Program-made: the position numbers and the translations under genes | Origin: a virus | Lineage: Duplodnaviria > Heunggongvirae > Uroviricota > Caudoviricetes | Length of the DNA stretch: 64,000 bases | Virus record (IMG/VR): IMGVR_UViG_3300049215_000070 | Reading direction: 5' to 3' (one strand) | Notes under the pieces: model-generated | The model's database searches: none | What the model was told of the DNA's origin: nothing | The model's input: only the letters and a program-made list of their open reading frames with translations | In this document: piece by piece, positions 29,268 to 44,923 of the stretch | Layout: each line of letters begins with the position of its first letter | Position numbering within the stretch: position 1 is the stretch's first letter

Positions 29268-29375
29268 ATGTATCGCGTTTACCAAATTATCAATGCTGAG
29301 TCTAAAAAAAGATACATCGGAATGACCAGAATGTCAGGACGCGAGCACTTCGGACACGCGTCAGTGGTGGCGTAA
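29268..29375 (+). pseudogene. GIY-YIG homing endonuclease N-terminal remnant (35 codons)
   Basis: MYRVYQIINAESKKRYIGMTRMSGREHFGH aligns with GIYxIxN...YIGS..R..H of I-TevI-like enzymes. AT-richer island. TAATG overlap with the next gene. Confidence 0.55.
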
Positions 29376-30472
29376 TGGGCGCACTCAGCTTTCTCAATCA
29401 GGGCACGGCGCCGAGCGCCAGCTCAAACTACAGCCAAAGCTCGACCCAGCTTCCCAGCTGGTACACGGACTACACGCAGCAAATCCTGAACACCGCGGCG
29501 CAGTTTGCCGCGCAACCGTATCAAACGTATCAGGGTCCGCGCATAGCCGCTCAAGACCAGAACACGGAAAACGCTTATTCCGCGGCCCCCGGCATCGCGA
29601 ACACCGCGAGCGGCACGAACACCACCGCGCAGAATTTGATTCAGCAGGGCGCGAATCAGAACAACCCCTTAGGGGCGGCGCAGCCGTACCTCAATCAGGG
29701 CACAGACCCGACGTACAACACGGTTCAGAATTACATGAACCCGTACAACACGGATGTCACGAATGCCATCGCGACCGCGGGCAACACAAATTTCAATCAG
29801 AACACGCTCCCGGCGCTGCAGTCGTCTATCATTGGTGCGGGCAACATCACCGGCAGCTCGACGGAGGGAACAAACCTCATCGAGAACGCGGAACAACAAA
29901 ACAACCAGAACATCACAAACGCGCAAGCCGCGGCGCTGCAGTCTGGGTACACGGGATCTTTGAACGCCGCGCAACAAGGCAACGCAAACGCGCTCACCGC
30001 CGGTCAAACCGCCGCCAACGCAAACACCGCGCAAGCCAACACCTCAATCAACGCCGGGACCGCGGCGTCGAACGCAGGCACTCAAGCCACCGCGAACGAG
30101 CTTGCCGCGTCGAACAATGAAAACACTCTGGGTCAGCAAAATCAGGGGTATAATCAATCCAATTTGAACCTGGCGTACCAGGACTACCTGAACCAGCTCA
30201 ATTACCCGCTCACTCGGGTCAGCGAGATGCAGGGCGCGCTATCAGGGATTCAGGTGCCGTCCGCCACCGTGAACTACAACTACGGTACCGGCGTCGGCGG
30301 CGGCAACGGCAGCGCGCAGGGCAGCACAACGTCGCCGCTTGCGAGCTTGTTCGGCACCGGAGTTGGCGCCGCGGCAGGCGCGGCTGGCAGCACGACCCCA
30401 ACCACAACCAACACCGCAGCCGGGCCGTCAAATGTCGGCGGGTTTGTCAACGGCGTCTGGCAAGGGAGTTAG
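29375..30472 (+). CDS. internal virion protein, Asn/Gln/Thr-rich (365 aa)
   Basis: Low-complexity ORF in the ejection-protein block. Confidence 0.5.
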   Translation: MGALSFLNQGTAPSASSNYSQSSTQLPSWYTDYTQQILNTAAQFAAQPYQTYQGPRIAAQDQNTENAYSAAPGIANTASGTNTTAQNLIQQGANQNNPLGAAQPYLNQGTDPTYNTVQNYMNPYNTDVTNAIATAGNTNFNQNTLPALQSSIIGAGNITGSSTEGTNLIENAEQQNNQNITNAQAAALQSGYTGSLNAAQQGNANALTAGQTAANANTAQANTSINAGTAASNAGTQATANELAASNNENTLGQQNQGYNQSNLNLAYQDYLNQLNYPLTRVSEMQGALSGIQVPSATVNYNYGTGVGGGNGSAQGSTTSPLASLFGTGVGAAAGAAGSTTPTTTNTAAGPSNVGGFVNGVWQGS

Positions 30473-30473
30473 C

Positions 30474-32291
30474 ATGGCTGAGCAAGTCAACAGCATGGGC
30501 ATTCCACTTGAAGATGCCGAGCTGGACGATCCAAGTAGCAACATAGACGCCCCTGACCCGTTGCTTGACGAGTCCCCTCGAAGCGGCGCGCTTGCGGCTG
30601 TCACTCAAGGTGGCGCACGCCGAGCGGCCAAAGATCGCTACGACGAGAACAACGCCGAGATGGACGATTTGCGTCAGCAGTACGCAAGCACCGCCAAACA
30701 GCAAGCGGACGCGTACGCTCAGCAGAAAGCGCAAATTGACGCAGCGACCGCGCGCCTCCAGGGCATGCAGGTTGGCCCCAGCGACCAGGAGAAGCTGTAC
30801 CGTATCGCGGCGGCTGGCGCCACACCAAACCACAACGGCGTCGACATCGCCGGGATCAACGCCACGCAGGCCGACGTACTCAAAGAACGGCGCGAAGCGG
30901 AGCTGCAAAAGCAAAACCTTCTCGCTCAGTACGGATTTCAGGGTCCGCAGGCCACCATTGGCGCAACCAATGCAAAGTTGAATCAGCTCACGCAGCAGCA
31001 GCGCATCGTCGCCGGTCAGCTCAACAGCGCAGGCAACCAGCAATTCCGTGGGCAAGCCAACATGCCGTTTGGGTTAACCCAGAACGCCGACGGCTCCGTT
31101 TCTGTCGCCCCTGGCATGGAGCAGTACTGGAACGAAAAATCACTGGCTGCCATGTACGGCAAAGGCTACATGAAGCCGAACCCGGACGGATCTAAGTCCT
31201 GGATATCGCTCGCGCCTTTGGCCGCATCTTTGCAGCGCGGGCAGCAACCGCCTCAGCAAGCGCCGCAACAGGCACCGCAACAGGCACCGCAAACGCCGCC
31301 ACAGCAAGGTGGGGGAGCAATAACTCCTCAAGCACCTCGTCCAGTCGCGGCTGCGGCACCTTCTGCGGCACCGGCAGCAACAGCCCCGCAAATCCCATCC
31401 GCACCTACGGCACTCCAAGCGCCAGCAAAGCCTCTGCCCAGCCCGTATGACGATTTGTTCATACCGTCCACGGTGCTAGACCCGAAATACGGCGCGCTTA
31501 CGCCTGCAACCAAGCCCGCGTACGTTGCCACCGCGGCGCAGGCTTTCGATCCCGCGTACTTCAAAGAGTACCAGTTTCAGGCGAACAATTTTGGCGACAT
31601 GGATGTTCGCAAAAAAAACCTGGAGAAAGAAGCCGCCGAGCTTGCGGAAGCGGGCAACAGCGCAAAAAGCGTCATCTACAATTACGGTCAGGCGCTGCAT
31701 CAAATGGACCAATTGAACGACCCGCAGCTTCTCAGCGGACCCGCGGGCGCAAAAATTGGCGCGTTCGAGAACACGCTTCGCGGCGTGCTGCCAGATACCG
31801 TAACGCAGCAGCTTTTTAGCGACCCAAACCTGAAAAAACTCGCCACTCAACAGGACACAGACAAGTACTTTTTGAACGCGGCGACAACCGGCCTAAAAGC
31901 TATTTACGGTGGCCGCATCACGAACATGGAAGTGCAGCAACGACTCAAGAGCCTGCCCAGCAATAACCTGCTCCCGGCGGTGACGCGCATGCTAGCCGCG
32001 GCGCAGGCCGAGGTCGCTCAAGATACGGTCAACAAGGGCAAGCTATTTGGCGCTTACGTGCGCAAAGGTGGAGATCCCGCACCGGGAACTTTCAACACCT
32101 GGTACGAGGCAAACTTTGACCCGTTTGGTGAAAGCCGTCTCAAGCAAAATTTGAATCAGCTGCAAACCGTTGCCCCTGCAAAAACCGCCGCACCCGCTGC
32201 GCAAAACCCGCTGGTTGCTTACTACAGCGGCCCGTACGCCGCCTGGGTTGCTGGCGGTAAAAAAGGCCCGCAACCCCCGAGACCTCGGTAA
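30474..32291 (+). CDS. internal virion protein (605 aa) with QQAPQQAPQQAPQ repeat
   Basis: ATG 2 nt after the upstream stop. Gln-rich. Confidence 0.5.
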   Translation: MAEQVNSMGIPLEDAELDDPSSNIDAPDPLLDESPRSGALAAVTQGGARRAAKDRYDENNAEMDDLRQQYASTAKQQADAYAQQKAQIDAATARLQGMQVGPSDQEKLYRIAAAGATPNHNGVDIAGINATQADVLKERREAELQKQNLLAQYGFQGPQATIGATNAKLNQLTQQQRIVAGQLNSAGNQQFRGQANMPFGLTQNADGSVSVAPGMEQYWNEKSLAAMYGKGYMKPNPDGSKSWISLAPLAASLQRGQQPPQQAPQQAPQQAPQTPPQQGGGAITPQAPRPVAAAAPSAAPAATAPQIPSAPTALQAPAKPLPSPYDDLFIPSTVLDPKYGALTPATKPAYVATAAQAFDPAYFKEYQFQANNFGDMDVRKKNLEKEAAELAEAGNSAKSVIYNYGQALHQMDQLNDPQLLSGPAGAKIGAFENTLRGVLPDTVTQQLFSDPNLKKLATQQDTDKYFLNAATTGLKAIYGGRITNMEVQQRLKSLPSNNLLPAVTRMLAAAQAEVAQDTVNKGKLFGAYVRKGGDPAPGTFNTWYEANFDPFGESRLKQNLNQLQTVAPAKTAAPAAQNPLVAYYSGPYAAWVAGGKKGPQPPRPR

Positions 32292-34255
32292 TGGCAAACG
32301 ATACGGACTTACTTGCGGCCTTAAAGGCCGCGCATGACGCCGGGGATGACGAGGCGGCGGCGGCTATTGCCGCGCAAATGTCGGCGCAACCGGTGACGCA
32401 TGAACCGGTCAAACAACCGGACACGTTGACCATTACTCCATCAGATCCATCAGAGCAACCAGGTGGCGAGCACTGGATGGAAAAATACGGCCCGACGTCA
32501 GGTATGAGCGGGCTGGATAAATTTCGTGCGGGAATTGGTCAATCTTTTGTTGACACCGGGCGAGGAATATCGCAATTATTTGGTGGTCAATCCAAGTCGG
32601 ACACCGACGAGCAGCGCCGATTAGACGCGCCCCTCGACAGGACCGGCGCTGGATTGGCCGGTAACATCCTGGGAGGCGTGGCGCAATCCGCGTTGCCCGG
32701 GTTGGGCGCCGAGGCAGCAGGCGCAAAGATCGCCTCAGGGCTTGCGACAAGTCCCGGCGCGCTGCAGGCCGCGCAGGCCATTTACCGCATCGCGCGTCCC
32801 GCCGCAACCGGCGCCGCGTACGGAGCGTTAGCACCAGTCGGAAGCAATGAGACGCGCGCAGGGAACGCCGGTCTGGGCGCCGCTGCGGGTGAGGTCGGTC
32901 AGGTGCTGGGTAACGCGGGCGCGAATGTGCTGCGCTCCGGTGAGGATGCGCTTACAGCTGGCGCTCGCAAAGGCGCCGACATCGCCCGCAAGTACGGCAT
33001 TCCGTTAAGTATGCCGCAGCTCGCAGGCAAATTTACCGGTTTCGTTGGGGACACGCTTGATAAACTGCCGTTCAGCGGTGCGAGCGACCGACGAGACGCG
33101 CAGCGAAGCGCATTCAATGACGCGCTGGGTCGTACCGCCGGAATACCAAACGCGCAAGGCGCGATCAACACCGACATGGTTGACCACGCGCGAGACACCG
33201 TAGGCAGCGCCATTGGCAACATGGCGAGCAACCGTGTCGCGCTTGTTACCCCGAAACAAGTTCAAGGTGTCACGCAGCTTCTGCAGGACGTGAATGACGT
33301 CTCGACGCCTGAGACGGCGCGCGTAGTCAACAACTACGCCAACAAAATGTTCGGTATGGGCGCGTCCGGTCCTTCCAAAGTCATCCCCATCAACAATGCG
33401 CTTCCCGGCGGACCCATCGCGCAAATACCTGGCGACGCTTGGCGCGAACAGAACACACAAATCGGGAACCACATCCGCAGGCTTGGGCCAAACGACGGCG
33501 ACCTGAAGTACTACCTGGGCGAGCTGCAAGACCATTACATGGATACTATGCAGAACGCGATGTCGCCCGAAGAATTCAATCAATTCCAAAGTTTGCGCGG
33601 GCAATACCGCAACAATCGAACCATCGCCCCGCTTGCTGAAAAAGCAGGCGACGAAGGTATCAACCCGTTGCTGGTGCAAGCGAGAGCTATTTCGGCCAAA
33701 AACAACCGCGGCGACGTTGGAGAGCTTGGGGATTTTGCCAAGTCAATGCTCGCCAAAAAATACCCGGACAGCGGCACCGCGCAACGCGCGCTGATGTACT
33801 CCGCGATTACCGGCGGATTGGGCGCTGGGGCTGGCGCGTTACTAGACGACGAAAATCACGGCACGGGCGCGGCATATGGAGCGCTCCCTGGCGCGGCGAT
33901 GATCGCTGGCGGGTTGGCCGGTCGAGGTCTGAATTCTCAGGCGCTCAGTCGGTTGTATCAGGCGCGCATGCCGGAGCCTGTTGCGGGCACGATTCGAGAC
34001 CTGGCGGCTCGTAGCCCGGTTGCGGCGCAGCGCGCGGAGCAAGTAATCGCGCCACAGGAAGGATACGCAGACGGCGGCGAAGTCAAAAAATCAACCTTCT
34101 GGGATCTTGTGCAGCAAGCTGTCAAAGAGCTAGCTTCACCCAGCACCAATGCACCGCCCACGCCGACACCAGCACCCGGCACAGTAGCATCAGGCAGTGT
34201 AGGCCAAGACTTTGACAATAAGGTGAACCAAGCCGTGCAAGGCGCCGGTGGTTAG
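32291..34255 (+). CDS. internal virion (ejection) protein (654 aa) with C-terminal YADGGEV motif
   Basis: TAATG coupling. Gly/Ala-rich. Confidence 0.5.
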   Translation: MANDTDLLAALKAAHDAGDDEAAAAIAAQMSAQPVTHEPVKQPDTLTITPSDPSEQPGGEHWMEKYGPTSGMSGLDKFRAGIGQSFVDTGRGISQLFGGQSKSDTDEQRRLDAPLDRTGAGLAGNILGGVAQSALPGLGAEAAGAKIASGLATSPGALQAAQAIYRIARPAATGAAYGALAPVGSNETRAGNAGLGAAAGEVGQVLGNAGANVLRSGEDALTAGARKGADIARKYGIPLSMPQLAGKFTGFVGDTLDKLPFSGASDRRDAQRSAFNDALGRTAGIPNAQGAINTDMVDHARDTVGSAIGNMASNRVALVTPKQVQGVTQLLQDVNDVSTPETARVVNNYANKMFGMGASGPSKVIPINNALPGGPIAQIPGDAWREQNTQIGNHIRRLGPNDGDLKYYLGELQDHYMDTMQNAMSPEEFNQFQSLRGQYRNNRTIAPLAEKAGDEGINPLLVQARAISAKNNRGDVGELGDFAKSMLAKKYPDSGTAQRALMYSAITGGLGAGAGALLDDENHGTGAAYGALPGAAMIAGGLAGRGLNSQALSRLYQARMPEPVAGTIRDLAARSPVAAQRAEQVIAPQEGYADGGEVKKSTFWDLVQQAVKELASPSTNAPPTPTPAPGTVASGSVGQDFDNKVNQAVQGAGG

Positions 34256-34371
34256 CGGCGGCTTGATCCCAGGCGTCTGAGAGCGCGTACGCAGCCAGGC
34301 ACCCAAAAAACCCAATCAGCATCAAAATTAGCATGGTCATCTCCTGTTAAGATGACCCAATCTACTGCGTC

Positions 34372-34908
34372 TTGAAGGTAAAGTCAATGTTTGACCGCAT
34401 AATCGACTTCTTCTTCCAGTTCGCAAGTTTGTTTCAATTTTGGGTGATTTTGGAGCCGTATGACGAAGGCGTGCGCCTGAGGCTAGGAAAGCAGCACGGT
34501 GGCCCGCTGAGATGCGGGTTGCACTGGAAAATACCGTTCAAGGTCGACCAAATCCTGACGCTGCAGGTGGTCCCTTCGACGCACAGCCTGGGCGACGAAA
34601 GCGTGATGACAAAAGATGGGAAGTCCATCACGTTTCACGCGATTATAACTTTTCAGATCAGCGACATCGAGAAAGCTCTTCTCAAAGTTCATGACGTAGA
34701 TCACGCTGTGAGAGATAGCTGCTCCGGTGAGGTGGGTCGCGTATTGCGCGAAAGCACATGGGATGAGATATTGAAAGATGACATTCTCGATAAGCTGACC
34801 GCGGCCTGCCGAAAAAAGGGCTGGCGCTGGGGGTTGGAGATCATGTCGGTGCAGCTTGCCGGGTTGTCTATCGCGCGCAATATTCGTCTCATGAACAGTA
34901 GCAGGTAA
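34372..34908 (+). CDS. SPFH/band-7 (stomatin/HflK/C-like) domain protein with N-terminal hydrophobic anchor
   Basis: GLHWKIPF..VDQI..LQVVP...DESVMTKDGKSITFHAIITFQISD...VGRVLRESTWDEIL...WGLEIMSVQLAGLSI follows the SPFH consensus. Alternative ATG start at 34387. Confidence 0.65.
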   Translation: MKVKSMFDRIIDFFFQFASLFQFWVILEPYDEGVRLRLGKQHGGPLRCGLHWKIPFKVDQILTLQVVPSTHSLGDESVMTKDGKSITFHAIITFQISDIEKALLKVHDVDHAVRDSCSGEVGRVLRESTWDEILKDDILDKLTAACRKKGWRWGLEIMSVQLAGLSIARNIRLMNSSR

Positions 34909-34909
34909 A

Positions 34910-36040
34910 ATGTCAAACACACCCGATGAACGTTCAGTCAAGATCGCTAAACTCCACGCCAAGGGCCTTTCCCAAAGGGAAATAGCCAAAAAACTCGGCA
35001 TCGCGCAAAGCACCGTCTCGGAGCGCCTCAAAAAAGTAGGCGGCTCATTCCCCGCACCAGACGGGCATTACGTCAAAGCAACCTCCACCCTTTACAGCCC
35101 AGACGGCGAGATCAAGCTTCAGTGGGTGAAATCTAGCCTAGATGAAGAGGCGCGTCAAGCAGCAGAGAAGGCCGCATTTGCGGCACTGTGCGAGACGCTG
35201 CCACGGTATGTGCCGACCAACGGCCCCGGGCACACCGACGCGGAGCTTGCGAACCTGTACGTGTTTACAGATTGTCACGTAGGCATGCTGGCATGGGGCA
35301 AGGAAACCGGGGACGACTGGGACACGGGAATCGCTGAGCGCACGCTGATTCGAACTTTCGAGGCAATGATCGCGGGCAGCCCCAAGGCGCGGGTTGCTAT
35401 AATTGGGCAGATGGGGGATTTTTTGCATTTTGACGGTTTACTGGCCGTTACCCCCACATCCAAGCACGTACTTGACGCCGACAGCCGATTCTCAAAAATT
35501 GTCAAGATCGCGATACGGGTGCTGCGGTACATCATCGACATGGCGCTTCTCAATCACGAGGAGGTCCACGTCGTCATGGCGGACGCGAATCACGACCCGG
35601 CGAGCCAGGTTTGGCTGCGGCACATGTTCACCGCGCTGTACGAGAACGAGCCGCGCGTCAAGGTCAACGACAGCGAAAAGCCTTTCTATGCGTACCAGCA
35701 CGGCGAAACCATGATCGGGTTTCACCACGGGCACACGCTGAAAAAAGAAAAGCTCCCGCTGCTGCTTGCCACGCTGTACCCCAAGATGTGGGGCAACACG
35801 CTCAAGCGATACTGCCACACCGGTCATCTGCACACGGTGGACGAGGTCGAGGCCAACGGCATGAAGATCGTGCAGCATCCCACTATTGCCGCCAAGGACG
35901 CGTACGCGGTTCGTAACGGCTGGGTAAGTCAGCGACAAGCATCATGCATTACCTATCACCAGTCTTATGGCGAAGTCGGTCGCACCGTCGTCTGCCCCGA
36001 GATGTTCGAGACAATTAATGGACCCACAAACCCTCATTGA
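34910..36040 (+). CDS. HTH (sigma70 region-4/LuxR-like) fused to a calcineurin-like metallophosphoesterase domain
   Basis: GLSQREIAKKLGIAQSTVSERLKK helix-turn-helix. Phosphoesterase motifs DCHVG, GDFLHFDG, ANHD, HHGH, GHLH in canonical order. Confidence 0.6.
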   Translation: MSNTPDERSVKIAKLHAKGLSQREIAKKLGIAQSTVSERLKKVGGSFPAPDGHYVKATSTLYSPDGEIKLQWVKSSLDEEARQAAEKAAFAALCETLPRYVPTNGPGHTDAELANLYVFTDCHVGMLAWGKETGDDWDTGIAERTLIRTFEAMIAGSPKARVAIIGQMGDFLHFDGLLAVTPTSKHVLDADSRFSKIVKIAIRVLRYIIDMALLNHEEVHVVMADANHDPASQVWLRHMFTALYENEPRVKVNDSEKPFYAYQHGETMIGFHHGHTLKKEKLPLLLATLYPKMWGNTLKRYCHTGHLHTVDEVEANGMKIVQHPTIAAKDAYAVRNGWVSQRQASCITYHQSYGEVGRTVVCPEMFETINGPTNPH

Positions 36041-39000
36041 CAAATACCGCGGCGTTCTTGGGCTTACCGGGCACGCCGCTCAGTCCACCGCAGCGAACAT
36101 CGCGGGCGGACTTGTGGGCCTTGGAAACCTTCCCAGAGGCATAGACGCCGCTGAGTCTGCCCGTCAGCTGATTACCGACAAGCTTTCCCCAGGAGAACCC
36201 GACTCGCAAACCATTGGCCTGATACGGGACATCGCCCCGGCCTACCTGGCCGCGGCGCGCAGCCCGGTCGCCAAGGCGGCGCACGCCGTCGGGGACGCGT
36301 ACGACAAAAGCGTCGACACCTACGCCGACTTAGCGTCGCGCTACCTGGGCGCCCCGGCTGGGGGTGAGGTGGCCGCATTGGGCGCCGCGCTGCCAAACGC
36401 CGCCTTTCCTGAATCAAAAGCCGCCAAAGCCACCGAGTACGCCGCCCCCGCCGCCGAATTGCTGAGCAAGTACCCGGCGACCCCGGTGCTGCCAGACGGC
36501 TCGACCCTGCGCACGCTGGCCCGTGAGGGCGCCGCAAACGCCCGCAGAGCCGACGAAGGCTTACCCCCTCCCGATGTGCTCGCAAGCGATTTCGCAGGCA
36601 GGCAGGCCGCGCACGAGGGCGCCGTGGCGCAACGTAACGCGGACCCGGCGTACATCAAGGCCAAGGTACCGGCCACGAGCGTAGACCCGTCATTGTACCC
36701 ATCTAGTTTTAGCCCGCCGGACAACGCGGAGGCGTACGTCGCCATGGATCCGCAAACCGGGCAGCACATCGGGCATGTGACGTTCGTCAAGCGCGGTGAC
36801 GGCGTATCCAGCTTGCGCATGGACGTCGCCCCCACTTATCAGGGGCAGGGCATCGGCAGCGACTTGCTGAATGACGCCATTGCAAACGCGCACGACCAGG
36901 GCCTGCCGTACCGGTCAGACACTCAGGTAAGTGTTCCGGCAGCCAAAACTTACAGCAAGCTTCCCGGGGCGATCCGCAACGAGGACGTGGATCACATGAT
37001 TGACCCGAATGACGGTCACGTCGGGGTATCCAGCAACGGTCGCGCGGTGTTTGAGATTCCGCCGAGTGCGGATGCGGACGACGCGACACCGGACGAGATG
37101 CCGCACTTCAACCCGAACAGCTACATCGGCAGCCAGGCGTACGCCGAGGGCGGTGAGGTTGCGCCTGCATTGGGGGACATTGGCGACCTGATTGCGCGCT
37201 ACGCAACCAAACCGCTGCCCGGGTTACCTGCCAAGGTGCAGGTGCCGGGAGTTGGCGGACTAGAGGTTGGTCCAAACCCCAAAATCCGCCAGGTAGCGCA
37301 AAATTACATGGACGAGGTCGGAATCAAAAACCCGCCTCAGCCCATTTACGCCAAGGCCGACCCGGTGCGCGGTAAAGCGATTGCCGCCGCCTACGACGCC
37401 GCGCAGCACAACCCCAGCGACCCGGACGTCAAGGCCTCGTACGACGCGCTTATCAAGGAAACCTTGGCGCAGTATCAGCACATCAAAAACGCAGGACTTA
37501 AGGTAGATCTTATTCAGCCCGGTCAGGCTGACCCGTACGCCGCCTCGCCGCGACTCGCGGTAGAGGATATCAACCGCAACAACCACATGTGGGTATTCCC
37601 GACGTCAAGCGGATTCGGTACCGAGGGCGCGGCGCCGATGGATCACCCACTGCTGGCGGATAGCGGCGAAACAATTAGCGGGCAACCCGCAACCGCGAAC
37701 GACATTTTTCGGGTAGTTCACGATTATTTTGGGCACGCCAAGGAAGGAGTCGGATTTCGCGCCGATGGCGAAGAGAACGCCTGGAATCAGCACGCGCGCA
37801 TGTACTCGGATCTAGCCAAACCGGCGATGACCGCAGAGACGCGCGGGCAGAACAGCTGGGTGAACTTTGGTCCTCACGCCGACGCGAACAAAGGCGCGAG
37901 CGCCGCCAGCACCGTGTACGCACCGCAGAAGGCTGTCATTTTGCCGGATGTTTACAATGATCCCGACGCCGGACGGACGATGGATTTTTTGCACATGTCC
38001 AACCTGACAGACCCGCAGGTTACGCTTGACCCTGCGGCGTACGGCACAGGCATGAAAGGCGCTGAGGCGCGCAGGGGCGGAACCAAAACCATCAGCCTGT
38101 ACCCTGCGAACATAGACCCCAAGGATATCGAGCTGCCGCTGCAAGGAAAAACACCGTACCGTGTCTCGGTTCCCGCGAGCCAGATGTACGACATGTCGAA
38201 CGATCCGCTAGGATACCGCTCGATAACGCCCAGCTACAGCGACGCCGAGGACGCCATCAGGGGTGCGGGATGGGCCGGGTATTACACACCGGATCACGAA
38301 GACCCAAGACAGCGCGGGCAGGCGCGGCTGTTTGTGCCGACGACCGCGACACGCCTTGACCCCATTGACGCGCCCGGGCCAACGAAAGCCGCCGCAGCGA
38401 AAAGCAGCGGCTTGTACGACGACACACTGGACACCTCAGATTTCTCTACCGGTGGCCTGGTTCAAAAATACGCCGACGGAGGTGAGGCAGCGGTCGCGCT
38501 CGATGATGTCGCAAACCTTATCGCCAAGTACGGCAAAGATGCCGCCCCAGCGCAAGCGGAGCATCTCGCGAATGCGGTCTCCGAGAACGGCTCCGCTACC
38601 TACAACCCAACCACCGGAGACGTCCACAGCAGCGGCTACGCCGTTCCGCACGATATTAGCCGCAGTGTCGCCCTAGACGCGCCGCCTACCGCGGGCGACA
38701 TCCATGACTTCATGCTGCAAAACCAGGACGCATTCGACAACCCGAAGGCGGCAGTTCACGTCGAGAGCGACGGTAACGGCAATCACTTCATCCACGTCGC
38801 TCACGTCGAGCCAGATTTTGATAGCGCAATGGCTGCCGCCAAGGCATTCGACGCGCCGGGAGTACGCGAGCTTCATACTGGCAACAATTTTCCTGCTGAT
38901 GGTCCCGCCGGGATCAGCGATGATGCGGATACGGGGATAGAGGATTACTTGGCGGGATCAAAGATACCAGAGACAAACCTACCGGCGGAACTGGACACAG

Positions 39001-40127
39001 AGCGCAATCAGAGACCAAGGACGGCGTGGAAATATGGGAAGCCAACGGTTGATCCTGCGCAACGGGTGGCTTTTCCGGGGATCTACAATGATCCTCGTCA
39101 GGTGATTCAGGATGCGAATTCAATGGTTGGTCCAGAAGAACCTCTGCTTGAGAGATTATTCGGCGTAAATCGTCAAGATCTATCCGACATCGCATTAGGT
39201 CGGCAAGGAAACGAAATCGGGACTCTTCCTGGGGCAAAGCCTGGATCGACTGGAGCCGCCTCAGCGCGAGCAGTAATGACTCCGCAGAACGAGCAGCGTC
39301 TGATAGACGTTCTGAACGAAGCTCGTGGAACGCCGTTACACACGGGTATGACTGGTTGGTATTCAATGGACCCTCTCTATGAAAGATTTAGGCAAATATT
39401 TGGTGACGAGGACGCGCCAGCTAAGTACCAGCAATTCAATACTCTTTCTGGAATGGCGTCTCCGGGGTCAGACGTGGGAACTGAGATTGCGCGGGGGACA
39501 TCTGCAAATTGGCTGCAAAACCAGGGACGCTTTGCTGATTTCCTAAAGTACTCTGGGGTTGCAAACGATGAGCGGGCAGGGATTCGCGATTACCCTCAGG
39601 ATATTCTCGATGTTCCTGGGCATGCGTACCACAAGACGGCGCATGCTCTGCCAATGAGCCAGTACCTGTCTTCTGGTGAGATCCAGATGAAGTCCCCGAA
39701 GGTTCCAATGTACATTGGGGCATCAGGGGTACCAGAGACTGGATTTCAATCAGATATGCCAGTAGGCGACGCCCACTGGGCGCGCGGAGTAGGTCTAGCC
39801 GATACCCGGAACCCTCGCACTTTGAAAGGAGAAAGCATCGTCCCGGGTTCGTCGGCATCGACTCCAGAAATGCAGACACTTGGTCCTTGGTGGCGAGATC
39901 GGGTGGCAGCTCAAGCCGGATATGGAGCCGTTCCAGCTCAGGCGACCGCTTGGGGGGTTTTCGCGCCGTATACAGGCGTAACATCCAACATAGGGGCGCC
40001 GAAACTAGAGATACTATCGACTCAGATAGGAAAACTAGCCCAACGGCTAGGGGTATCACCAGAAACAGCCAGGGATCTTGTGATCCAGGGTAAAGCAGGG
40101 GCGTACTCATCAGGAGGCTCCGTCTAG
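36018..40127 (+). CDS. giant virion protein (1369 aa) containing a GNAT acetyltransferase motif and an internal duplicated YA(D/E)GGE(V/A)..L.D...LIA(R/K)Y segment
   Basis: VAPTYQGQGIGSDLLNDAI is GNAT motif A (about 36820-36880). Duplicated segments at about 37139 and about 38469. First ATG at 36018. The ORF extends upstream to 35967 with no ATG. Confidence 0.6.
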   Translation: MDPQTLIDKYRGVLGLTGHAAQSTAANIAGGLVGLGNLPRGIDAAESARQLITDKLSPGEPDSQTIGLIRDIAPAYLAAARSPVAKAAHAVGDAYDKSVDTYADLASRYLGAPAGGEVAALGAALPNAAFPESKAAKATEYAAPAAELLSKYPATPVLPDGSTLRTLAREGAANARRADEGLPPPDVLASDFAGRQAAHEGAVAQRNADPAYIKAKVPATSVDPSLYPSSFSPPDNAEAYVAMDPQTGQHIGHVTFVKRGDGVSSLRMDVAPTYQGQGIGSDLLNDAIANAHDQGLPYRSDTQVSVPAAKTYSKLPGAIRNEDVDHMIDPNDGHVGVSSNGRAVFEIPPSADADDATPDEMPHFNPNSYIGSQAYAEGGEVAPALGDIGDLIARYATKPLPGLPAKVQVPGVGGLEVGPNPKIRQVAQNYMDEVGIKNPPQPIYAKADPVRGKAIAAAYDAAQHNPSDPDVKASYDALIKETLAQYQHIKNAGLKVDLIQPGQADPYAASPRLAVEDINRNNHMWVFPTSSGFGTEGAAPMDHPLLADSGETISGQPATANDIFRVVHDYFGHAKEGVGFRADGEENAWNQHARMYSDLAKPAMTAETRGQNSWVNFGPHADANKGASAASTVYAPQKAVILPDVYNDPDAGRTMDFLHMSNLTDPQVTLDPAAYGTGMKGAEARRGGTKTISLYPANIDPKDIELPLQGKTPYRVSVPASQMYDMSNDPLGYRSITPSYSDAEDAIRGAGWAGYYTPDHEDPRQRGQARLFVPTTATRLDPIDAPGPTKAAAAKSSGLYDDTLDTSDFSTGGLVQKYADGGEAAVALDDVANLIAKYGKDAAPAQAEHLANAVSENGSATYNPTTGDVHSSGYAVPHDISRSVALDAPPTAGDIHDFMLQNQDAFDNPKAAVHVESDGNGNHFIHVAHVEPDFDSAMAAAKAFDAPGVRELHTGNNFPADGPAGISDDADTGIEDYLAGSKIPETNLPAELDTERNQRPRTAWKYGKPTVDPAQRVAFPGIYNDPRQVIQDANSMVGPEEPLLERLFGVNRQDLSDIALGRQGNEIGTLPGAKPGSTGAASARAVMTPQNEQRLIDVLNEARGTPLHTGMTGWYSMDPLYERFRQIFGDEDAPAKYQQFNTLSGMASPGSDVGTEIARGTSANWLQNQGRFADFLKYSGVANDERAGIRDYPQDILDVPGHAYHKTAHALPMSQYLSSGEIQMKSPKVPMYIGASGVPETGFQSDMPVGDAHWARGVGLADTRNPRTLKGESIVPGSSASTPEMQTLGPWWRDRVAAQAGYGAVPAQATAWGVFAPYTGVTSNIGAPKLEILSTQIGKLAQRLGVSPETARDLVIQGKAGAYSSGGSV

Positions 40128-40340
40128 CTTATCTGTGGTATCAGACTGTGATCGCAATTTAAGCGAAGCCGATTTGACTTTCTCTTTCGTGACCCCGGCA
40201 CCGTCATGCCAAACATCAATGCAGACCGGCAAGTCAACCCGCTAAACATTAATCGACACCGAGATACCGGACCTGGCGTGTCGCACACGTCACATACTGG
40301 CGACTGATACAAGCCAGCCCATACTGCCTCTCTCATGGCT

Positions 40341-40553
40341 TCACTTCTCCGCTCCGGGGTTGGCCTTAGAGCGCGACTGAACCGCATCTGCAGCCGCGTC
40401 ATTAATCATATCTAGCATCATGTCGTCAGACTGATTTACAAGCTTCGACCAGCGTCGGTATTGACACATACAAAAAAAAGAAAACGCCACAAAATACGCG
40501 GCGTGAAAAGCCACTACGCCGCACCAAAAACCGACCCAAAACAAATCATGCAT
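40341..40553 (-). CDS. small membrane protein (70 aa)
   Basis: AGGAG RBS before ATG (MHDLFWVGFWCGVVAF...). Confidence 0.45.
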   Translation of the reverse strand: MHDLFWVGFWCGVVAFHAAYFVAFSFFCMCQYRRWSKLVNQSDDMMLDMINDAAADAVQSRSKANPGAEK

Positions 40554-40554
40554 A

Positions 40555-40812
40555 TCAATCTCCTGTTGACTCATCCCTCACCGCAATTGGATTTATGTAT
40601 CGAAACTCGTACTCTTGCGTGGCCCGGTTAAAGCTGAAATCTACGCTTGCGCCTCTGATTTGCTCGATAACCGCCACGGGTACGGAGAATAACCGATCCG
40701 GCTGGGTAAAAGCAATAGCGGCCATGATTGACATCATGTCGCGAAGGCGCACCTCCATCTCGACCACGCTCTGCGTCAGCTCGCCCGCGGTCGGGAATTT
40801 TGTTTTTTCCAT
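40555..40812 (-). CDS. hypothetical protein (85 aa)
   Basis: Minus-strand gene train. Confidence 0.45.
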   Translation of the reverse strand: MEKTKFPTAGELTQSVVEMEVRLRDMMSIMAAIAFTQPDRLFSVPVAVIEQIRGASVDFSFNRATQEYEFRYINPIAVRDESTGD

Positions 40813-40981
40813 TACGGGGTACCTACCGCAGGGTCGGTGTCATCTACGGTGGGATCTTCATCAATAAACCACATGTCGCAAAAAAGGCACGGAATCATGC
40901 CGTTTTCATTTGGCTTACCGGCTAAAAATCGAGGGCACGGGCTGGCGCACACGTTATCCGCGAACACGATAAATACCCCAA

Positions 40982-41224
40982 TTATTCATACCTTGCCCCT
41001 TTGAATTTGCATGCTTTGCATTTTACGCGCAGTTTTGTAGGGCTGACGGACTCAACCTGCCCCGTATCATAAAGCATCCCGCCGCACTCTGGGCACAGCA
41101 GCCCGTTTGTGTAGGCCTCTGGTCTTGACACCCTGTCGCGCACATCGTGCCAGTAAGCTTCTCTGCGCGCGTTCCAGTGGTTGAGGTTGGTCTTTGTGTC
41201 TACGACGGCAAATCTCCAGTTCAT
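40982..41224 (-). CDS. zinc-ribbon protein (80 aa)
   Basis: CPECGG...CKACKF motif. ATGA coupling with the upstream gene. Confidence 0.45.
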   Translation of the reverse strand: MNWRFAVVDTKTNLNHWNARREAYWHDVRDRVSRPEAYTNGLLCPECGGMLYDTGQVESVSPTKLRVKCKACKFKGARYE

Positions 41225-41319
41225 TTGGCCGCACCAATCGCCAATCCCATTACCAGACCGCACGCGACCGCGGCAATGTAAAACAGCCACAGCAGCGTCG
41301 TCTTCATGAATGGCGTCAT
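41221..41319 (-). CDS. tiny membrane peptide (32 aa)
   Basis: Perfect GGAGGA RBS 4 nt before ATG. MTPFMKTTLLWLFYIAAVACGLVMGLAIGAAK. Confidence 0.5.
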   Translation of the reverse strand: MTPFMKTTLLWLFYIAAVACGLVMGLAIGAAK

Positions 41320-41327
41320 ATTTCCTC

Positions 41328-41753
41328 CTAAAATTTGAAGCGTAGACCCACCGACAAGTTGTGAGCGACGTATCCGGTCTCGACCCCGATGCTTATTGCC
41401 TCCCATCCGGTAATGACCGCAGAGGGCACGTCGTTTGATACCATTTCATAAGTAATCGCGGCATGAAGCCCCGCCACCGCCAACCCGTAGGCGGCAATCG
41501 TACCGGCGCTGGGGCGCGACCCTAGCAGCGGATTGTACTCGACAAACTGCGTCGCCGGACGGTACCTGATGTCGTTCGTGGTCAACATGTCCGCCAGAAG
41601 CGCGGCGTCGAAAGCGTACTCCAGCTTGGGCTGCGTCTCAAAAAAATTCCCGTAGTGATCGTCGGCCTTAGCCTGACCGCAAAGAAACACAAGCAGCAAA
41701 ATCATCGCACCCATGGCGATCACGTTTTCGATAAAAGTATCACGGCTATTCAT
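41328..41753 (-). CDS. secreted or outer-membrane-like small protein with signal peptide and C-terminal aromatic (…GLRFKF)
   Basis: N-terminal MNSRDTFIENVIAMGAMILLLVFLCGQAKA signal-like sequence. C-terminal Phe is typical of OM beta-barrels. Confidence 0.4.
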   Translation of the reverse strand: MNSRDTFIENVIAMGAMILLLVFLCGQAKADDHYGNFFETQPKLEYAFDAALLADMLTTNDIRYRPATQFVEYNPLLGSRPSAGTIAAYGLAVAGLHAAITYEMVSNDVPSAVITGWEAISIGVETGYVAHNLSVGLRFKF

Positions 41754-41934
41754 GTCATCTCTCCTTGGTTATTACGCACATATATCCTAACACAGTGGCT
41801 GGAGAAGGCCTTAAACGAGCACAAGCTACCCCAGACCCATACCGGCATCGCCTGGGATGCCAGGGCTGAGAAAAGGCCTGCAGCAAGCGGCCTAAGGGTA
41901 CCGGCGGTGAAATGTTATGAGCGCTCAACGCCGA

Positions 41935-42405
41935 CTATCCAATCAAGCCCTTGGGCCGGTCATCACCTTCAGTGTACGTTTTCGAGTATAGCTGCAGCAT
42001 TCGCACGTTACAGGCGACATGCGCCAGGTGAGGCAAACCAGACTCAGGGTCCAGTTCTTCGCCGCGCTGCCACGCCGCCAAATGCCGCTGGATGCACGCA
42101 AAAGGAATCGACCAGGCCATACCTTTTGTCCAGTTCCAGGCGGCGTATTTTTTCTTTCCGTACTCCCACACCCGGGCTTCATCTTCGAGCGTCACCAAAG
42201 GGATCAGGCTAAAATCAGGCTTGCCAGCGTTGTAGCGGGCGCCGCTTCCTTTCTCTTTGCTGTTGACGTCACCGACACCCGCAACCTGCGACTGAGAAAT
42301 CAATGTAGGCGATAGCGCCTCAATCGCAATCACACCGGGAATTACCGTGGTTGATTTCAGCGCCTCTTTGTAGGCGTCGTATCCGGCGTCTCCTGCTATG
42401 CTCAT
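41935..42405 (-). CDS. dATP/dGTP pyrophosphohydrolase-like (DUF5664-type) protein
   Basis: KPDFSLIP...KKKYAAWNWTKG...C..RHL..W..GE motifs recalled from the phage dGTP_diPhyd_N family. Confidence 0.45.
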   Translation of the reverse strand: MSIAGDAGYDAYKEALKSTTVIPGVIAIEALSPTLISQSQVAGVGDVNSKEKGSGARYNAGKPDFSLIPLVTLEDEARVWEYGKKKYAAWNWTKGMAWSIPFACIQRHLAAWQRGEELDPESGLPHLAHVACNVRMLQLYSKTYTEGDDRPKGLIG

Positions 42406-42629
42406 TTTGCCTCGAATATTTTGAGTTTGTTGAAAGCACGCCGGATCACGTACTGCCGCGCCACGCTAACCAGGGTGAATAATACCCCAATCTCGGCATT
42501 TTTTGTGAGCGACAGCGTGTTGAATCCGAACAGCGGGAGGATGCACAGGTTGGCAATGAAGTTCACCGTGTAGCCTATAGCCAGGTTGACTGCCACTTCA
42601 GTAACGCTGCCTCTTTTGGTCTGGCTCAT
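42402..42629 (-). CDS. small membrane protein (75 aa)
   Basis: ATGA coupling. Two hydrophobic segments. Confidence 0.45.
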   Translation of the reverse strand: MSQTKRGSVTEVAVNLAIGYTVNFIANLCILPLFGFNTLSLTKNAEIGVLFTLVSVARQYVIRRAFNKLKIFEAK

Positions 42630-42964
42630 GCGGTTTCCCGTTTGCGGGTGCCGCGGCGCGTCTCGATCTTAGCGATGTTGGCGCGCATAATGTCCCCTAG
42701 TTCAATCTGGTACGTGCGAGCGATGCGGCACAGGTAGTGCAAAACGTCCCCAAGTTCCAGGGTCAGCGCGGCCCGATCAACCGGCCCGTCGCCGCGAATG
42801 TTTTTCTTGATATGCTCGCTCACTTCGCCAGCCTCACCCACAAGCCCCAGCGTCATGATTGCTAGCTCGCGCAGCGAATCTTCAGCGGTCGCGACCTTAC
42901 GAGTCCATCCCGCTTCGACCCAGTCGCAGAAGTTTTCAACAGTTATGTCCTGATAGGGTTGCAT
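42626..42964 (-). CDS. mazG: MazG-like nucleoside triphosphate pyrophosphohydrolase
   Basis: LGLVGEAGEVSEHIKK and ELGDVLHYL, the hallmark MazG EEXX(E/D) motifs. Confidence 0.7.
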   Translation of the reverse strand: MQPYQDITVENFCDWVEAGWTRKVATAEDSLRELAIMTLGLVGEAGEVSEHIKKNIRGDGPVDRAALTLELGDVLHYLCRIARTYQIELGDIMRANIAKIETRRGTRKRETA

Positions 42965-43348
42965 TCAAATCTCCGTATTGAGCAGCTCTCGGTCGAGATC
43001 CACGCCAGCGAACTGCGGCAACAACCGTGGAATTGCGGCAAGCGCCGCATTGTAGAATTCGTTGAATTCGTTCTGGTCCATCTTGGCCCAGCTTATTGAC
43101 ACCGGCTTGAAAGCTACCTTGTCACCTTCAAGCTGTATGCTGTCGACGTACCCGGCCTGCACCATTACCGCAAACCTCAGCGCCTCTTGACTGAGATACT
43201 TGTCCTGGTTGGAAAACACCAACCGAAGGAGACCAAAAAACTTGCGATGATGGCCGGGGTTGCGATCCTTCTTGCACGTGGCACGAACCACCTCCCCGGT
43301 CCCCAGCGCCGCTATGTACTCCTCGCCAACGCCGTCAATCGGCTTCAA
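42965..43348 (-). CDS. phage protein of unknown function (DUF1367-like)
   Basis: NPGHHRKFFGLLRLVFSNQ resembles a family recalled from lambdoid phages. Confidence 0.4.
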   Translation of the reverse strand: MKPIDGVGEEYIAALGTGEVVRATCKKDRNPGHHRKFFGLLRLVFSNQDKYLSQEALRFAVMVQAGYVDSIQLEGDKVAFKPVSISWAKMDQNEFNEFYNAALAAIPRLLPQFAGVDLDRELLNTEI

Positions 43349-43368
43349 TGTGCCGCCGAGCGTTTTTG

Positions 43369-43587
43369 TCAGGTAGATGTCGATGGCGTCACCTCGTACG
43401 TGCCAATTTCAGTGACGCGCACCTCGCGATTTCGGTTGTCGATAAACGCGTCGCATTCTTGCGCGCCATCAAACTCATACGGTGGCTCGTGAAAATAAAT
43501 CTGCAATACTCCTGGTTTCGCGGTATGCCGGTAGCAATCCAGCTTGCGCGGGCACATTCCACCAAAGCACATCGAGATGTCAGGCAT
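43369..43587 (-). CDS. small Cys-containing hypothetical protein (72 aa)
   Basis: ORF in the gene train. Confidence 0.4.
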   Translation of the reverse strand: MPDISMCFGGMCPRKLDCYRHTAKPGVLQIYFHEPPYEFDGAQECDAFIDNRNREVRVTEIGTYEVTPSTST

Positions 43588-43757
43588 TACAGCACCAAAC
43601 CTGAGGCCACGCCTTCCGCTTCTAAGACGCGAAGGTCATTTGCGGCATCAGACACACCGTGCCAGTCGGCCACCTCGGTCTTGTGCTTAAGGTATTCGAT
43701 CAAAGCGTCTCGGGCGGCAAAGTACTTGTCGACGTTGGTAAACACGTTAGATGCCAT
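43587..43757 (-). CDS. small hypothetical protein (56 aa)
   Basis: Internal ATG (MASNVFTNVDKYF...) of ORF 43587..44021. Confidence 0.35.
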   Translation of the reverse strand: MASNVFTNVDKYFAARDALIEYLKHKTEVADWHGVSDAANDLRVLEAEGVASGLVL

Positions 43758-44034
43758 CGGTGGCCTCCGTTTGCTTTTGGAGTGCGGCCCAGGCTGCTGC
43801 CTCTTTTCGCTGCTCTGCGCCACGTTGCTGTCGCTCGCGCAGTCGGATATACCAAAAAGCTCCCCAGGAGTTTCGACCTTTGGCGCGTGCCTTAGGGGTT
43901 GGTCGGCGATAGGTGTGCCCTTCGCGGTCGACCACGTAATCGAACTGGCCCTCGGCAGGAGTTGGTTTGCCGTCGGTCCCGAGAGCCATTCTTGGCACCA
44001 CAACGAGTTCTTTGGAGACATGCAGATAATTCAC
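43747..44034 (-). CDS. basic hypothetical protein (95 aa)
   Basis: First gene after the predicted minus-strand terminator. Confidence 0.4.
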   Translation of the reverse strand: MNYLHVSKELVVVPRMALGTDGKPTPAEGQFDYVVDREGHTYRRPTPKARAKGRNSWGAFWYIRLRERQQRGAEQRKEAAAWAALQKQTEATDGI

Positions 44035-44059
44035 AAACGCGCCTCGATAAATTTAGCAA

Positions 44060-44102
44060 TTTGCGCAAAAGACAAGCCGCTGTCGTTTTTTATTGCCAGC
44101 GG
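44060..44102 (-). terminator. candidate rho-independent terminator (minus strand) after the SSB-like gene
   Basis: Minus-strand read CCGCTG-(15-nt loop)-CAGCGG followed by CTTGTCTTTTGCG. The loop is long. Confidence 0.3.
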
Positions 44103-44116
44103 TACAGGACGCTATA

Positions 44117-44848
44117 TCAAAACGGTATACTGGGATGACCAAACGCCGGGTCATCATCGCCAAAATCGTCATCGCTTCCCGGCTCCCGAGCGCCAGGCTT
44201 TTTCGCGTCGAGCGGCTTGCCGTTTTTCTTTGTCGTGATCCGGTTGTCGATCTTTTCGCGAAGAAACTTGGGCAGCTTCTGGTAGACGCTGTCGTCCGGC
44301 TCGTCCGCGTTGAACGTCAGCAACGGGTTGTGAGGCTCAGCGGATATCGTTCCCGCAACGATTCCATCCTGCTGAATCTTCAGGATCTTGCCAGCGCTGG
44401 AGATGTTGGCGTAGGTTTTGTCGCCCTTCGTCTTGTGGATCACGCCAAGGTTGCACACCTTGCCCAGCAGCGAGGTAACGTCAAACTCCTCGCCCTCTTC
44501 CTTGGTAAATTCCTTGCCGCGCCAATTCGATATAAACGGCCCCAGGTTCGACTTATCGCCAATGTTGAGCGTAAACTCGCGCCCAATAATGGCAGGTCCC
44601 TTGACCTTCTCGCCGTTCTTTTCGTACTCGATCTGAATGTCGGGTATCTCAAAGCGTAAGTAAACCTTTGGCTGCTCCTTGGTCTCGCCGTCGAATGTCA
44701 CGGCCTGAATGCCGAGGTAGTAAACGCCCACGCAGATCGCGAAGTGCGTGCCAGCGGGGACCAGTTCGAAATCTTTCCCGCTGCTTTTTGAAGATGCTTT
44801 GATCGGTGCGTGTGCCACTATGGTTGTTCCTCGTATGTTCGTAGCCAT
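44117..44848 (-). CDS. ssDNA-binding-like protein (DUF669-like) with acidic C-terminal tail ending ...DDDPAFGHPSIPF
   Basis: C-terminal acidic tail ending IPF mimics the bacterial SSB DDDIPF tip. N-terminal region resembles the phage DUF669 family. Confidence 0.5.
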   Translation of the reverse strand: MATNIRGTTIVAHAPIKASSKSSGKDFELVPAGTHFAICVGVYYLGIQAVTFDGETKEQPKVYLRFEIPDIQIEYEKNGEKVKGPAIIGREFTLNIGDKSNLGPFISNWRGKEFTKEEGEEFDVTSLLGKVCNLGVIHKTKGDKTYANISSAGKILKIQQDGIVAGTISAEPHNPLLTFNADEPDDSVYQKLPKFLREKIDNRITTKKNGKPLDAKKPGAREPGSDDDFGDDDPAFGHPSIPF

Positions 44849-44923
44849 GTAAAATATTCGGGATCATCTGCGAGCATGCGCTGCTCGTCTTTTTCTGCCT
44901 GATGCCAGGTCGCGTCGTTGTAA

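Follow-up and report, generated by a model that had tools for sequence, protein, structure and literature searches.

Within the 64,000-nucleotide (nt) stretch of DNA analysed here as a whole (the window; IMG/VR virus record IMGVR_UViG_3300049215_000070, Caudoviricetes), the long plus-strand late operon ends in three consecutive genes, placed directly after those of five compositionally biased proteins. The three co-oriented open reading frames (ORFs) described in a first-pass annotation of this DNA do exist, and the following products were distinguished (aa, amino acids):

34387..34908, plus strand: short SPFH/Band-7 protein, 173 aa, with a hydrophobic N-terminal segment followed by an SPFH domain only
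34910..36040, plus strand: helix-turn-helix (HTH)-metallophosphoesterase, 376 aa, with an HTH and a calcineurin-like catalytic domain
36018..40127, plus strand: giant ORF, 1369 aa, with an ATG start and a 23-nt overlap with the phosphoesterase gene

The best explanation of this arrangement is that the operon ends in three separate genes, which are neighbours within a clade and form no obligate unit. The giant protein is a phage polyvalent protein sensu Iyer et al. (2017; PMC5512222) and a further case of the GNAT-bearing kind already described; its neighbours are a phosphoesterase very common in phages and a short SPFH protein. The main appeal of the locus lies in two widespread modules of no assigned function and in a punctuating linker that the giant protein has in common with an ejection protein.

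The length of the giant protein and the overlap of its gene with the phosphoesterase gene are as first annotated. Residue numbers count from the Met encoded at 36018; an upstream in-frame ATG at 35967 would make the protein 1386 aa long. Its overall composition includes 14% Ala, 10% Gly and 8% Pro, and the following parts were distinguished:

aa 1-235 (36018..36722), plus strand: Ala-rich N-terminal region, conserved
aa 236-315 (36723..36962), plus strand: GNAT acetyltransferase domain with the acetyl-CoA motif YQGQGIG
aa 375-396 (37140..37205), plus strand: linker copy 1, YAEGGEVAPALGDIGDLIARYA
aa 398-647 (37209..37958), plus strand: module C
aa 652-782 (37971..38363), plus strand: module D, a small alpha/beta domain
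aa 818-839 (38469..38534), plus strand: linker copy 2, YADGGEAAVALDDVANLIAKYG
aa 843-962 (38544..38903), plus strand: module E, a small alpha/beta domain
aa 1008-1364 (39039..40109), plus strand: module F, all-helical, ~355 aa

The N-terminal region is collinear in BLAST alignments, from residue 1, with the relatives P0002, P0004, P0006 and P0007 (P numbers denote related proteins from the protein search, L numbers comparison contigs or genomes). The GNAT domain, recognized in the first pass by its acetyl-CoA motif, passes the Pfam gathering scores of Acetyltransf_7 (E = 2.2e-7; 31.6 bits, cutoff 27) and Acetyltransf_1 (E = 1e-6; 29.4 bits, cutoff 20.7), and YQGQGIG conforms to GNAT motif A (Q/R-x-x-G-x-G/A). 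Its best NCBIfam match, RimI, is weak (E = 0.023, far below the cutoff). Together with the RimI-like GNAT family that Iyer, Burroughs, Anand, de Souza and Aravind (2017) describe in (pro)phage polyvalent proteins, where it typically neighbours an ADP-ribosyltransferase (ART) domain, this weak match suggests that the substrate may be a protein.

None of the four modules besides GNAT has a significant match in Pfam, nor does any solved structure match them convincingly. When the phosphoesterase and the giant protein were scanned against Pfam in seven sub-segments, up to E = 10, only GNAT stood out from noise; a Protein Data Bank (PDB) sequence search with the giant protein returned no match, and a 972-residue model of modules C-F found nothing below E = 0.5 in a Foldseek search of the PDB. 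In the model, modules C, D and E fold separately with confident predicted local distance difference test (pLDDT) values (>90, ~85 and ~90, respectively), and module F is modelled at 45-80.

Module C is highly conserved and matches PHROG 3170 (2.6e-15), and an alignment of its homologues revealed the invariant residues H568-D569…H573, E585, H592 and E607-T608…Q611-N612, a pattern of polar residues that looks typical of an enzyme. No match to it was found in Pfam, in the PDB by sequence (even with a module-C profile) or by Foldseek. The module occurs in 214 phage records, including ~200 mycobacteriophages, in which it is a small solo protein, and cyanophage genes annotated as 'large polyvalent protein'; in Planktothrix phage Pag-Yong1 it lies inside such a protein of 2772 aa. 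Module D is the likeliest carrier of a weak ART-like fold signal, in which the aligned residues could not be seen. Two of its features parallel ART-PolyVal segments, namely an N-terminal h-h-H-x-S start and a C-terminal 'AGYxGY…F.P' end; alignment of modules D and E with these segments by hhalign was not significant (probability 3.8 and 0.1%, respectively), and since this gave no confirmation, the ART-like nature of module D is something that we infer. Module E stands directly after the GNAT-containing N-terminal part in P0005, P0010 and P0014, in the place of module C.

An exhaustive search with module F yielded 511 cluster representatives, and for 383 of these E was < 1e-30. Among the matches listed, identity is 40-78% (mostly ~50%), and the proteins concerned are 394-2429 aa long; the module may take any position in them, and ART-PolyVal is present in some. 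Module F ends in a degenerate linker (AYSSGGSV), and its hhalign match to DUF7178 is weak and suggestive only (P = 8e-4, probability 24%). Modules C (214 phage records) and F (511 protein clusters) are thus both widespread and without an assigned function, a significant Pfam match or a convincing solved structural relative. Annotation of the giant as a tape-measure or tail-fibre protein was considered and rejected; it shows no such PHROG or Pfam signal, and its architecture is modular and enzymatic.

Among 5.8 billion proteins, 31 relatives of the giant protein were found. About a dozen are collinear with it over most of the length, and the remaining ones share only one stretch of ~250 residues, which is module C; according to Pfam, these carry ART-PolyVal, InPase, PBECR5, LPD22, LPD23, LPD38, Peptidase_M15 and DUF7178 domains. 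The collinear relatives differ by whole modules: (i) P0005 and P0014 have no module C, as found by BLAST, (ii) P0008 has the architecture of the giant with an ART-PolyVal module inserted at linker copy 2, between two copies of the linker, (iii) P0013 ends in DUF7178 instead of module F, and (iv) P0007 carries an extra module after module F. The N-terminal region and module F bracket exchangeable enzymatic or putative enzymatic modules.

Three hallmarks of polyvalent proteins recur at this locus: several (2-15 in the class) functionally distinct globular domains, catalytic effector domains among them, in one polypeptide, here GNAT and four further modules; a gene near those for virion and packaging proteins, here in one operon with terminase, portal, major head, structural and ejection proteins, and likewise in the relatives; and mosaic rearrangement of domains between related proteins. 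With the GNAT-bearing polyvalent proteins treated by Iyer et al. (2017) the giant shares large multidomain size, a place beside virion genes, GNAT, module exchange and relatives with ART-PolyVal, InPase, PBECR and LPD domains; it differs from the proteins described there in having no Pfam-detectable ART, LPD or metallopeptidase domain of its own. The locus is a compact example of the class, with five separable modules in 1369 aa and natural module swaps in its orthologues.

As a class, polyvalent proteins are predicted to be packaged and injected, and they are considered the earliest-acting phage proteins of an infection, although few have been studied. Iyer et al. (2017) also summarise T4 Alt, P1 DarB/DdrB and the N4 virion RNA polymerase as packaged and injected enzymes. 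With these the giant has a concept in common, that of capsid-carried enzymes delivered with the DNA to modify host targets; its catalytic domains are different and bear no detectable homology to them, and its own delivery is a proposal. A further precedent is gp47 of phi24B, a 2811-aa large polyvalent protein of an Stx podovirus, which mass spectrometry detected in abundance in virions and for which encapsidation and ejection have been proposed, with a role in the ejection conduit suggested by the authors of that study (bioRxiv 10.64898/2026.04.10.717836). Both are very large polyvalent proteins of short-tailed phages, but gp47 has LPD5, LPD1, LPD38 and a MuF-C metallopeptidase, of which Pfam detects none in the giant; no sequence relation between the two was found, and neither phi24B nor any other Escherichia phage is among the organisms listed for the tblastn search.

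The internal duplicated segment noted in the first pass is real, but it proved to be a linker of 22 residues (13/22 identical between the two copies) and no duplicated domain. Its consensus, [FYWM]A.GG at the core and [FY]A[DE]GGE….L.D…L[IV]A.Y in full, recurs in the full form at the module borders of P0001-P0011, P0013 and P0014, and the linker is also found at the end of module F in relatives where something follows that module. In 149 module-F proteins, 132 occurrences of [FYWM][AS].GG were counted, where shuffled sequences would lead one to expect 23; 26 of the 132 fall within 15 residues of the module F end and only 2 inside the module. A six-frame translation of the whole window contains 12 matches to the core, two-thirds of which (8/12) fall in the reading frames of four virion-module proteins: three in the product of 15727-16968, two in that of 27685-29265, one in the ejection protein (32291-34255) and two in the giant. 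The ejection-protein copy (YADGGEV…STFWDLVQQA, near the C-terminus, starting at nt 34064) is conserved in L003, L006 and L008. The linker also ties the giant to the ejection proteins. Term searches of Iyer et al. (2017; PMC5512222) retrieved no discussion of such an element from that source, and the linker may be the one feature here that is new.

A bolder reading takes the element as marking every module border of the class, as well as the point where module F ends and the C-terminal part of the ejection protein. The 22-residue [FYM]A[DE]GGE-(x)n-amphipathic helix would then be no passive linker but a functional signal, either a processing site or a tag for docking to the capsid or ejectosome; recombination could exchange the effector cassettes that it flanks, each of which would then be released or positioned by itself in the capsid or the host, and modules C and F would represent new enzyme families with this mode of delivery. 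We regard this as a rather unlikely extension of the data.

In the window, L003, L004, L006, L008 and the contig encoding P0221, the giant gene closes the virion operon, behind the genes of the ejection proteins; in Pag-Yong1 the corresponding gene is the last plus-strand gene before convergent minus-strand early genes, and in L007 it lies near the end of the operon. L007, a 58,992-bp contig whose 2186-aa polyvalent protein contains module C, also encodes an AIPR (abortive-infection phage resistance) protein two positions downstream (16894-18330).

The SPFH and giant genes stand together, with one middle gene between them, in each of the five giant-bearing clade contigs that were examined (the window, L003/L004, L006, L008 and the P0221 contig), and the giants of L003/L004, L008 and L006 are 71, 59 and 43% identical to that of the window, respectively. 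In four of these contigs (the window, L003/L004, L008 and L006) the middle gene encodes a protein of 376-418 aa, HTH-positive by Pfam in three. The 65.7-kb P0221 contig (locus positions 9001-14414) keeps the SPFH gene and a 1348-aa giant, and has as its middle gene one for a 284-aa protein without a Pfam match. Position and tight coupling had been read in the first-pass annotation as suggesting packaging and injection, and a comparison of synteny was proposed to show whether the block is accessory. The close spacing is not conserved: the giant gene overlaps the phosphoesterase gene in the window and L008 and not in L003, L004 or L006. Each of its two neighbours also occurs alone elsewhere, with the SPFH gene standing alone after a holin gene in L015 and the phosphoesterase family appearing in 2084 phage records in other contexts. 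The link of the SPFH protein and the phosphoesterase to the giant looks like clade synteny rather than a functional unit.

The first of the three genes was listed as an ORF at 34372..34908 with a TTG start (178 aa). The ATG at 34387, which is preceded by GAAGG, is the likely start; the resulting 173-aa product is identical to P0152, the form found in public gene calls. In a search for a host, the contigs encoding this identical protein turned out to be nothing but short metagenomic scaffolds. The first-pass assignment to the SPFH family is sound, as Pfam Band_7 matches aa 26-169 of 178 with E = 7.2e-17 (62.4 bits, cutoff 23.6). In NCBIfam there is a weak match to HflK (3.5e-11), and the equivalog cutoffs of HflK/HflC are not reached (TIGR01933, 43 bits, cutoff 159.4; TIGR01932, 19 bits, cutoff 134.4). 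Since the Band_7 match spans almost the whole length, the protein ends with its domain and has no room for a C-terminal coiled coil. It thus resembles HflK/HflC and other bacterial SPFH proteins in its SPFH domain and N-terminal hydrophobic anchor, whereas HflK/HflC and flotillins have in addition a C-terminal coiled coil of their own, which drives the formation of an oligomeric cage. A total of 132 short-SPFH relatives were found; those listed are nearly all 168-185 aa long and many are encoded on contigs of phage-genome size. In a tblastn search against phages no match, and hence no homologue in a cultivated phage, was found. The 42-kb contig L015 encodes a 54% identical SPFH protein directly after a holin of the same PHROG family as that of the window; it is the last late gene there, and the phosphoesterase and giant genes are absent. 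Most likely the SPFH protein is made late, is anchored in the membrane and works at the inner membrane of the host.

The middle gene of the window encodes a two-part protein, in which the following features were distinguished:

aa 6-44 (nt 34925-35041), plus strand: HTH (Pfam HTH_38)
aa 53-77, plus strand: beta-hairpin
approximately aa 105-366 (nt 35222-36007), plus strand: calcineurin-like catalytic domain, assigned from motifs and fold

The HTH described in the first pass was recovered with HTH_38 (1.1e-6); Sigma70_r4, the type originally named, matches below its cutoff (4.5e-4), and NCBIfam gives a weak match to a sigma-factor-type HTH. The catalytic part had been called a calcineurin-like phosphoesterase, a call that a failure of profile searches was expected to overturn. 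No Pfam match to it was found, even when this part was scanned alone up to E = 10, and none in NCBIfam, so that neither Metallophos nor Metallophos_2 is detected; the family is too divergent for these models. PHROG 704, on the other hand, matches the protein over its full length (E = 1.3e-123). The motifs quoted in the first pass are invariant in an alignment of 32 sequences (D121/H123, G169-D170, N227-H228-D229, H272-H273-H275, H303 and G305-H306-x-H308), and all five calcineurin-type motifs (DxH, GD, GNH[DE], H and GHxH) are present, with A or G at position 226. A PDB sequence search returned no match. With the AlphaFold model (pLDDT 78), Foldseek found 92 PDB structures at E <= 0.001, the best 50 of which are all metallophosphoesterases; the top matches include Mre11 (2e-7), PolD DP1, Rv0805 (2e-6), Vps29, LpxH (1e-5) and GpdQ, with probability 1.00 for Mre11, PolD DP1, Rv0805, LpxH and Vps29 (E = 2e-7 to 1e-5). 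The assignment as a metallophosphoesterase therefore stands, on the invariant motifs and the fold match.

The best structural matches of the model, Mre11/SbcD and PolD DP1 (Foldseek E = 2e-7 to 4e-6), have a matching set of binuclear-metal motifs. The resemblance is nevertheless distant, with ~13% identity and TM-scores of only 0.33-0.47, and other phosphodiesterases score almost equally; the phosphoesterase of the window also has an N-terminal HTH in place of the usual partner-binding parts of Mre11 and PolD DP1. An ATPase partner of the Rad50/SbcC type was found neither in the block nor among the genes annotated beside the homologues in five annotated phages.

The family is large, with more than 4760 metagenomic proteins (typically ~55% identical among the closest 120) besides its 2084 phage records. 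Homologues from enterobacterial and Rhodobacter phages are 38-50% identical to the protein of the window, and more distant ones 25-32%. Those of PHROG 704, annotated as 'DNA repair exonuclease' or 'phosphoesterase' in Jerseyvirus, Webervirus, Dhillonvirus, Bonnellvirus and Rhodobacter Casjensviridae, have the HTH and catalytic architecture and identical invariant motif residues in common with it. They differ in setting, since elsewhere they adjoin a polynucleotide kinase gene or come after the lysis cassette, and in the window the gene lies between those of the SPFH and polyvalent proteins. In Bonnellvirus the homologue stands between an endonuclease and a polynucleotide kinase; in Webervirus it is followed by a polynucleotide kinase, a deoxynucleoside monophosphate kinase and the lysis cassette; in Jerseyvirus it belongs to a small opposite-strand island inside the tail genes; and in Rhodobacter Casjensviridae and two metagenomic siphovirus-like contigs it comes behind the lysis genes and closes, or nearly closes, the late operon. 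Clusters of DNA-metabolism genes hold the family in Autographiviridae and Webervirus. Examples of homologue loci are 5708-8092 of L010 (Salmonella phage MA12), 5956-8191 of L011 (Klebsiella phage phi1_146047) and 6962-9305 of L002 (Escherichia phage glasur). The polynucleotide kinase adjoining the homologues in Webervirus and Bonnellvirus is short, and the Jerseyvirus island also holds a superinfection-immunity gene and an anti-repressor.

The Webervirus, Bonnellvirus and Jerseyvirus contexts suggest that the phosphoesterase gene is a mobile accessory gene, possibly for the healing of nucleic-acid ends, and none of the contexts elsewhere suggests a virion protein. The adjacency to polynucleotide kinase hints at the processing of nucleic-acid ends, and the fold, together with the HTH, hints at DNA as its target. 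Most likely the phosphoesterase works within the infected cell, with DNA or the phosphoester ends of nucleic acids as its substrate. A literature search found no tested function for this family, and the HTH-metallophosphoesterase is among the commonest phage genes for which this is the case in the literature searched.

From the genes, domain identities, mosaicism, gene order and linker distribution observed here, a model can be proposed in which packaging, injection, substrates and timing are predictions. The giant would be made late in infection, incorporated into the capsid together with the preceding low-complexity ejection proteins and delivered to the cell along with the DNA. As soon as infection begins, its modules would alter host proteins covalently, by acetylation and possibly by ADP-ribosylation-type chemistry. 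We consider it probable that the giant is carried in the capsid with the ejection proteins and reaches the cell when the DNA does, and that its modules modify host targets. If it is packaged, the locus would offer a convenient system for following the loading of such a protein, its cutting at the linkers and the targets of GNAT acetylation on entry. In this respect the first-pass proposal of a packaged and injected effector is reasonable for the giant, given its mosaic polyvalent architecture, its operon position, the shared motif and the gp47 precedent; its extension to a cargo set of three genes finds no support, and nothing indicates packaging of the SPFH protein or the phosphoesterase.

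Several points weigh against this interpretation. (i) For the phage of the window, packaging of the giant is a prediction drawn from the gp47 precedent and the shared motif. (ii) The GNAT match is short, covering ~80 residues. (iii) The giant itself has no Pfam ART, LPD, peptidase, InPase or PBECR match; its placement in the class is based on its architecture and on the domains of its relatives. (iv) The Foldseek E-values of the phosphoesterase do not separate a nuclease from a cyclic-nucleotide or lipid phosphodiesterase (Mre11, 2e-7; Rv0805, 2e-6; LpxH, 1e-5). (v) The SPFH and giant genes flank a single middle gene in five of five clade contigs, and some functional link between the three has still to be allowed for.

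The main rival explanation is that the giant is chiefly a structural component of the ejectosome or internal core, comparable to T7 gp16, whose N-terminal region and module F build a DNA conduit and whose enzyme-like modules are accessory or inactive. The conservation pattern fits such a role, as the giant is present in every clade member and nearly all collinear homologues keep the N-terminal region and module F, while C, ART and E come and go; the wide distribution of module F (~50% identity across 383 clusters) would suit a core mechanical function, the ejection protein has the same motif, and a conduit is what the phi24B study proposes for gp47. However, no transmembrane segment was noticed on reading the translation of the giant and no peptidoglycan-hydrolase domain was detected in it by Pfam, and module F also occurs N-terminally or internally, in proteins down to 394 aa. 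The GNAT domain, moreover, retains its acetyl-CoA motif and module C many invariant polar residues, on which the argument for an active giant is based. We judge a chiefly structural role unlikely.

Less room is left for the first-pass model itself, by which the three proteins would be packaged as a single cargo and injected jointly, for host takeover or anti-defence. The gene order directly after the ejection proteins in the five giant-bearing clade contigs, and the close spacing or overlap of the genes in the window, are what such a set would predict. Yet the SPFH protein has a hydrophobic N-terminal anchor and in L015 follows the holin without the other two, the phosphoesterase family is found among DNA-metabolism genes in Autographiviridae and Webervirus and behind the lysis cassette in other phages, the middle gene is replaced in the P0221 contig, and neither protein contains the [FYM]A.GG motif common to the ejection proteins and the giant; we hold this model to be very unlikely. 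That none of the three is packaged, and that all are late cytoplasmic or membrane proteins which, for example, modify host or phage proteins before lysis, exclude superinfecting phages or process nucleic acids, would agree with the recurrent site of the phosphoesterase gene at the late-operon end after the lysis genes in unrelated phages, with the like position of the SPFH gene in L015 and with the lack of a demonstrated packaging signal or protease site, but is equally hard to credit for the giant, for which the class-wide virion-gene context, the motif common with the ejection proteins and the detection of gp47 in virions point to packaging. A giant polyvalent protein that is packaged with the ejection proteins, next to two neighbours that act on their own, remains our preferred reading of the locus.

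The window as a whole represents one phage genome of ~58,993 bp read past its start, because in a self-comparison positions 1-5007 are repeated at 58994-64000 bar three mismatches. These differences between the two end copies (4876 T/C, 4889 G/T and 4943 C/A) are clustered in the terminase-portal intergenic region, near the end of the window. Among 50,697 phage records there was no DNA-level match for the three-gene block, cultivated phages included. The late operon upstream of the block and the genes facing it are as follows:

2983-4587, plus strand: terminase
4963-7635, plus strand: portal protein, ~49% identical to those of Caulobacter phages RW and KcrB; those of Roseobacter, Pelagibacter and Planktothrix phages are more distant
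11878-12795, plus strand: major head protein
next in the operon, plus strand: tail genes
20749-21357, plus strand: endolysin (PHROG 315)
21699-22205, plus strand: holin (PHROG 3427)
further on in the operon, plus strand: virion structural proteins
26283-34255, plus strand: five compositionally biased proteins
32291..34255, plus strand: ejection-protein homologue, 654 aa, the last of the five
40124-45720, minus strand: early genes (MazG/dGTPase-like, NinB), convergent with the block, with replication genes beyond

The five proteins upstream of the block were correctly described in the first pass as being of low complexity (Ala 13-20%, Gly 8-16%), and the last of them matches PHROG 26400 ('DNA ejection protein'; E = 2.4e-29) and, in a tblastn search, the 'DNA injection protein' of Xylella phage Xfas53. 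Another low-complexity protein, encoded at 27685-29265, has a C-terminal segment (aa 449-515; 'GPGDGTNDKIPARLSPGEFVISADVV') that matches the tape-measure PHROGs 6090, 25241 and 5448; despite this match the genome otherwise looks podovirus-like. The endolysin and holin genes are embedded midway among the structural genes of the operon and precede the SPFH gene by ~12 kb.

A promoter and terminator scan of 33800-41000 gave no more than expected by chance, and PADLOC reported weak HTH matches and nothing more. On the minus strand, at 34122-34340, lies an ORF of 72 aa, which is preceded by a strong AGGAGA ribosome-binding site and encodes a product with a hydrophobic N-terminus (MTMLILMLIGFFGCLAAY…); no PHROG match was found for it. 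This ORF extends across the 3' end of the ejection-protein gene and occupies the interval up to the SPFH gene, and a minus-strand ORF of 29 aa was called at the same position in L008.

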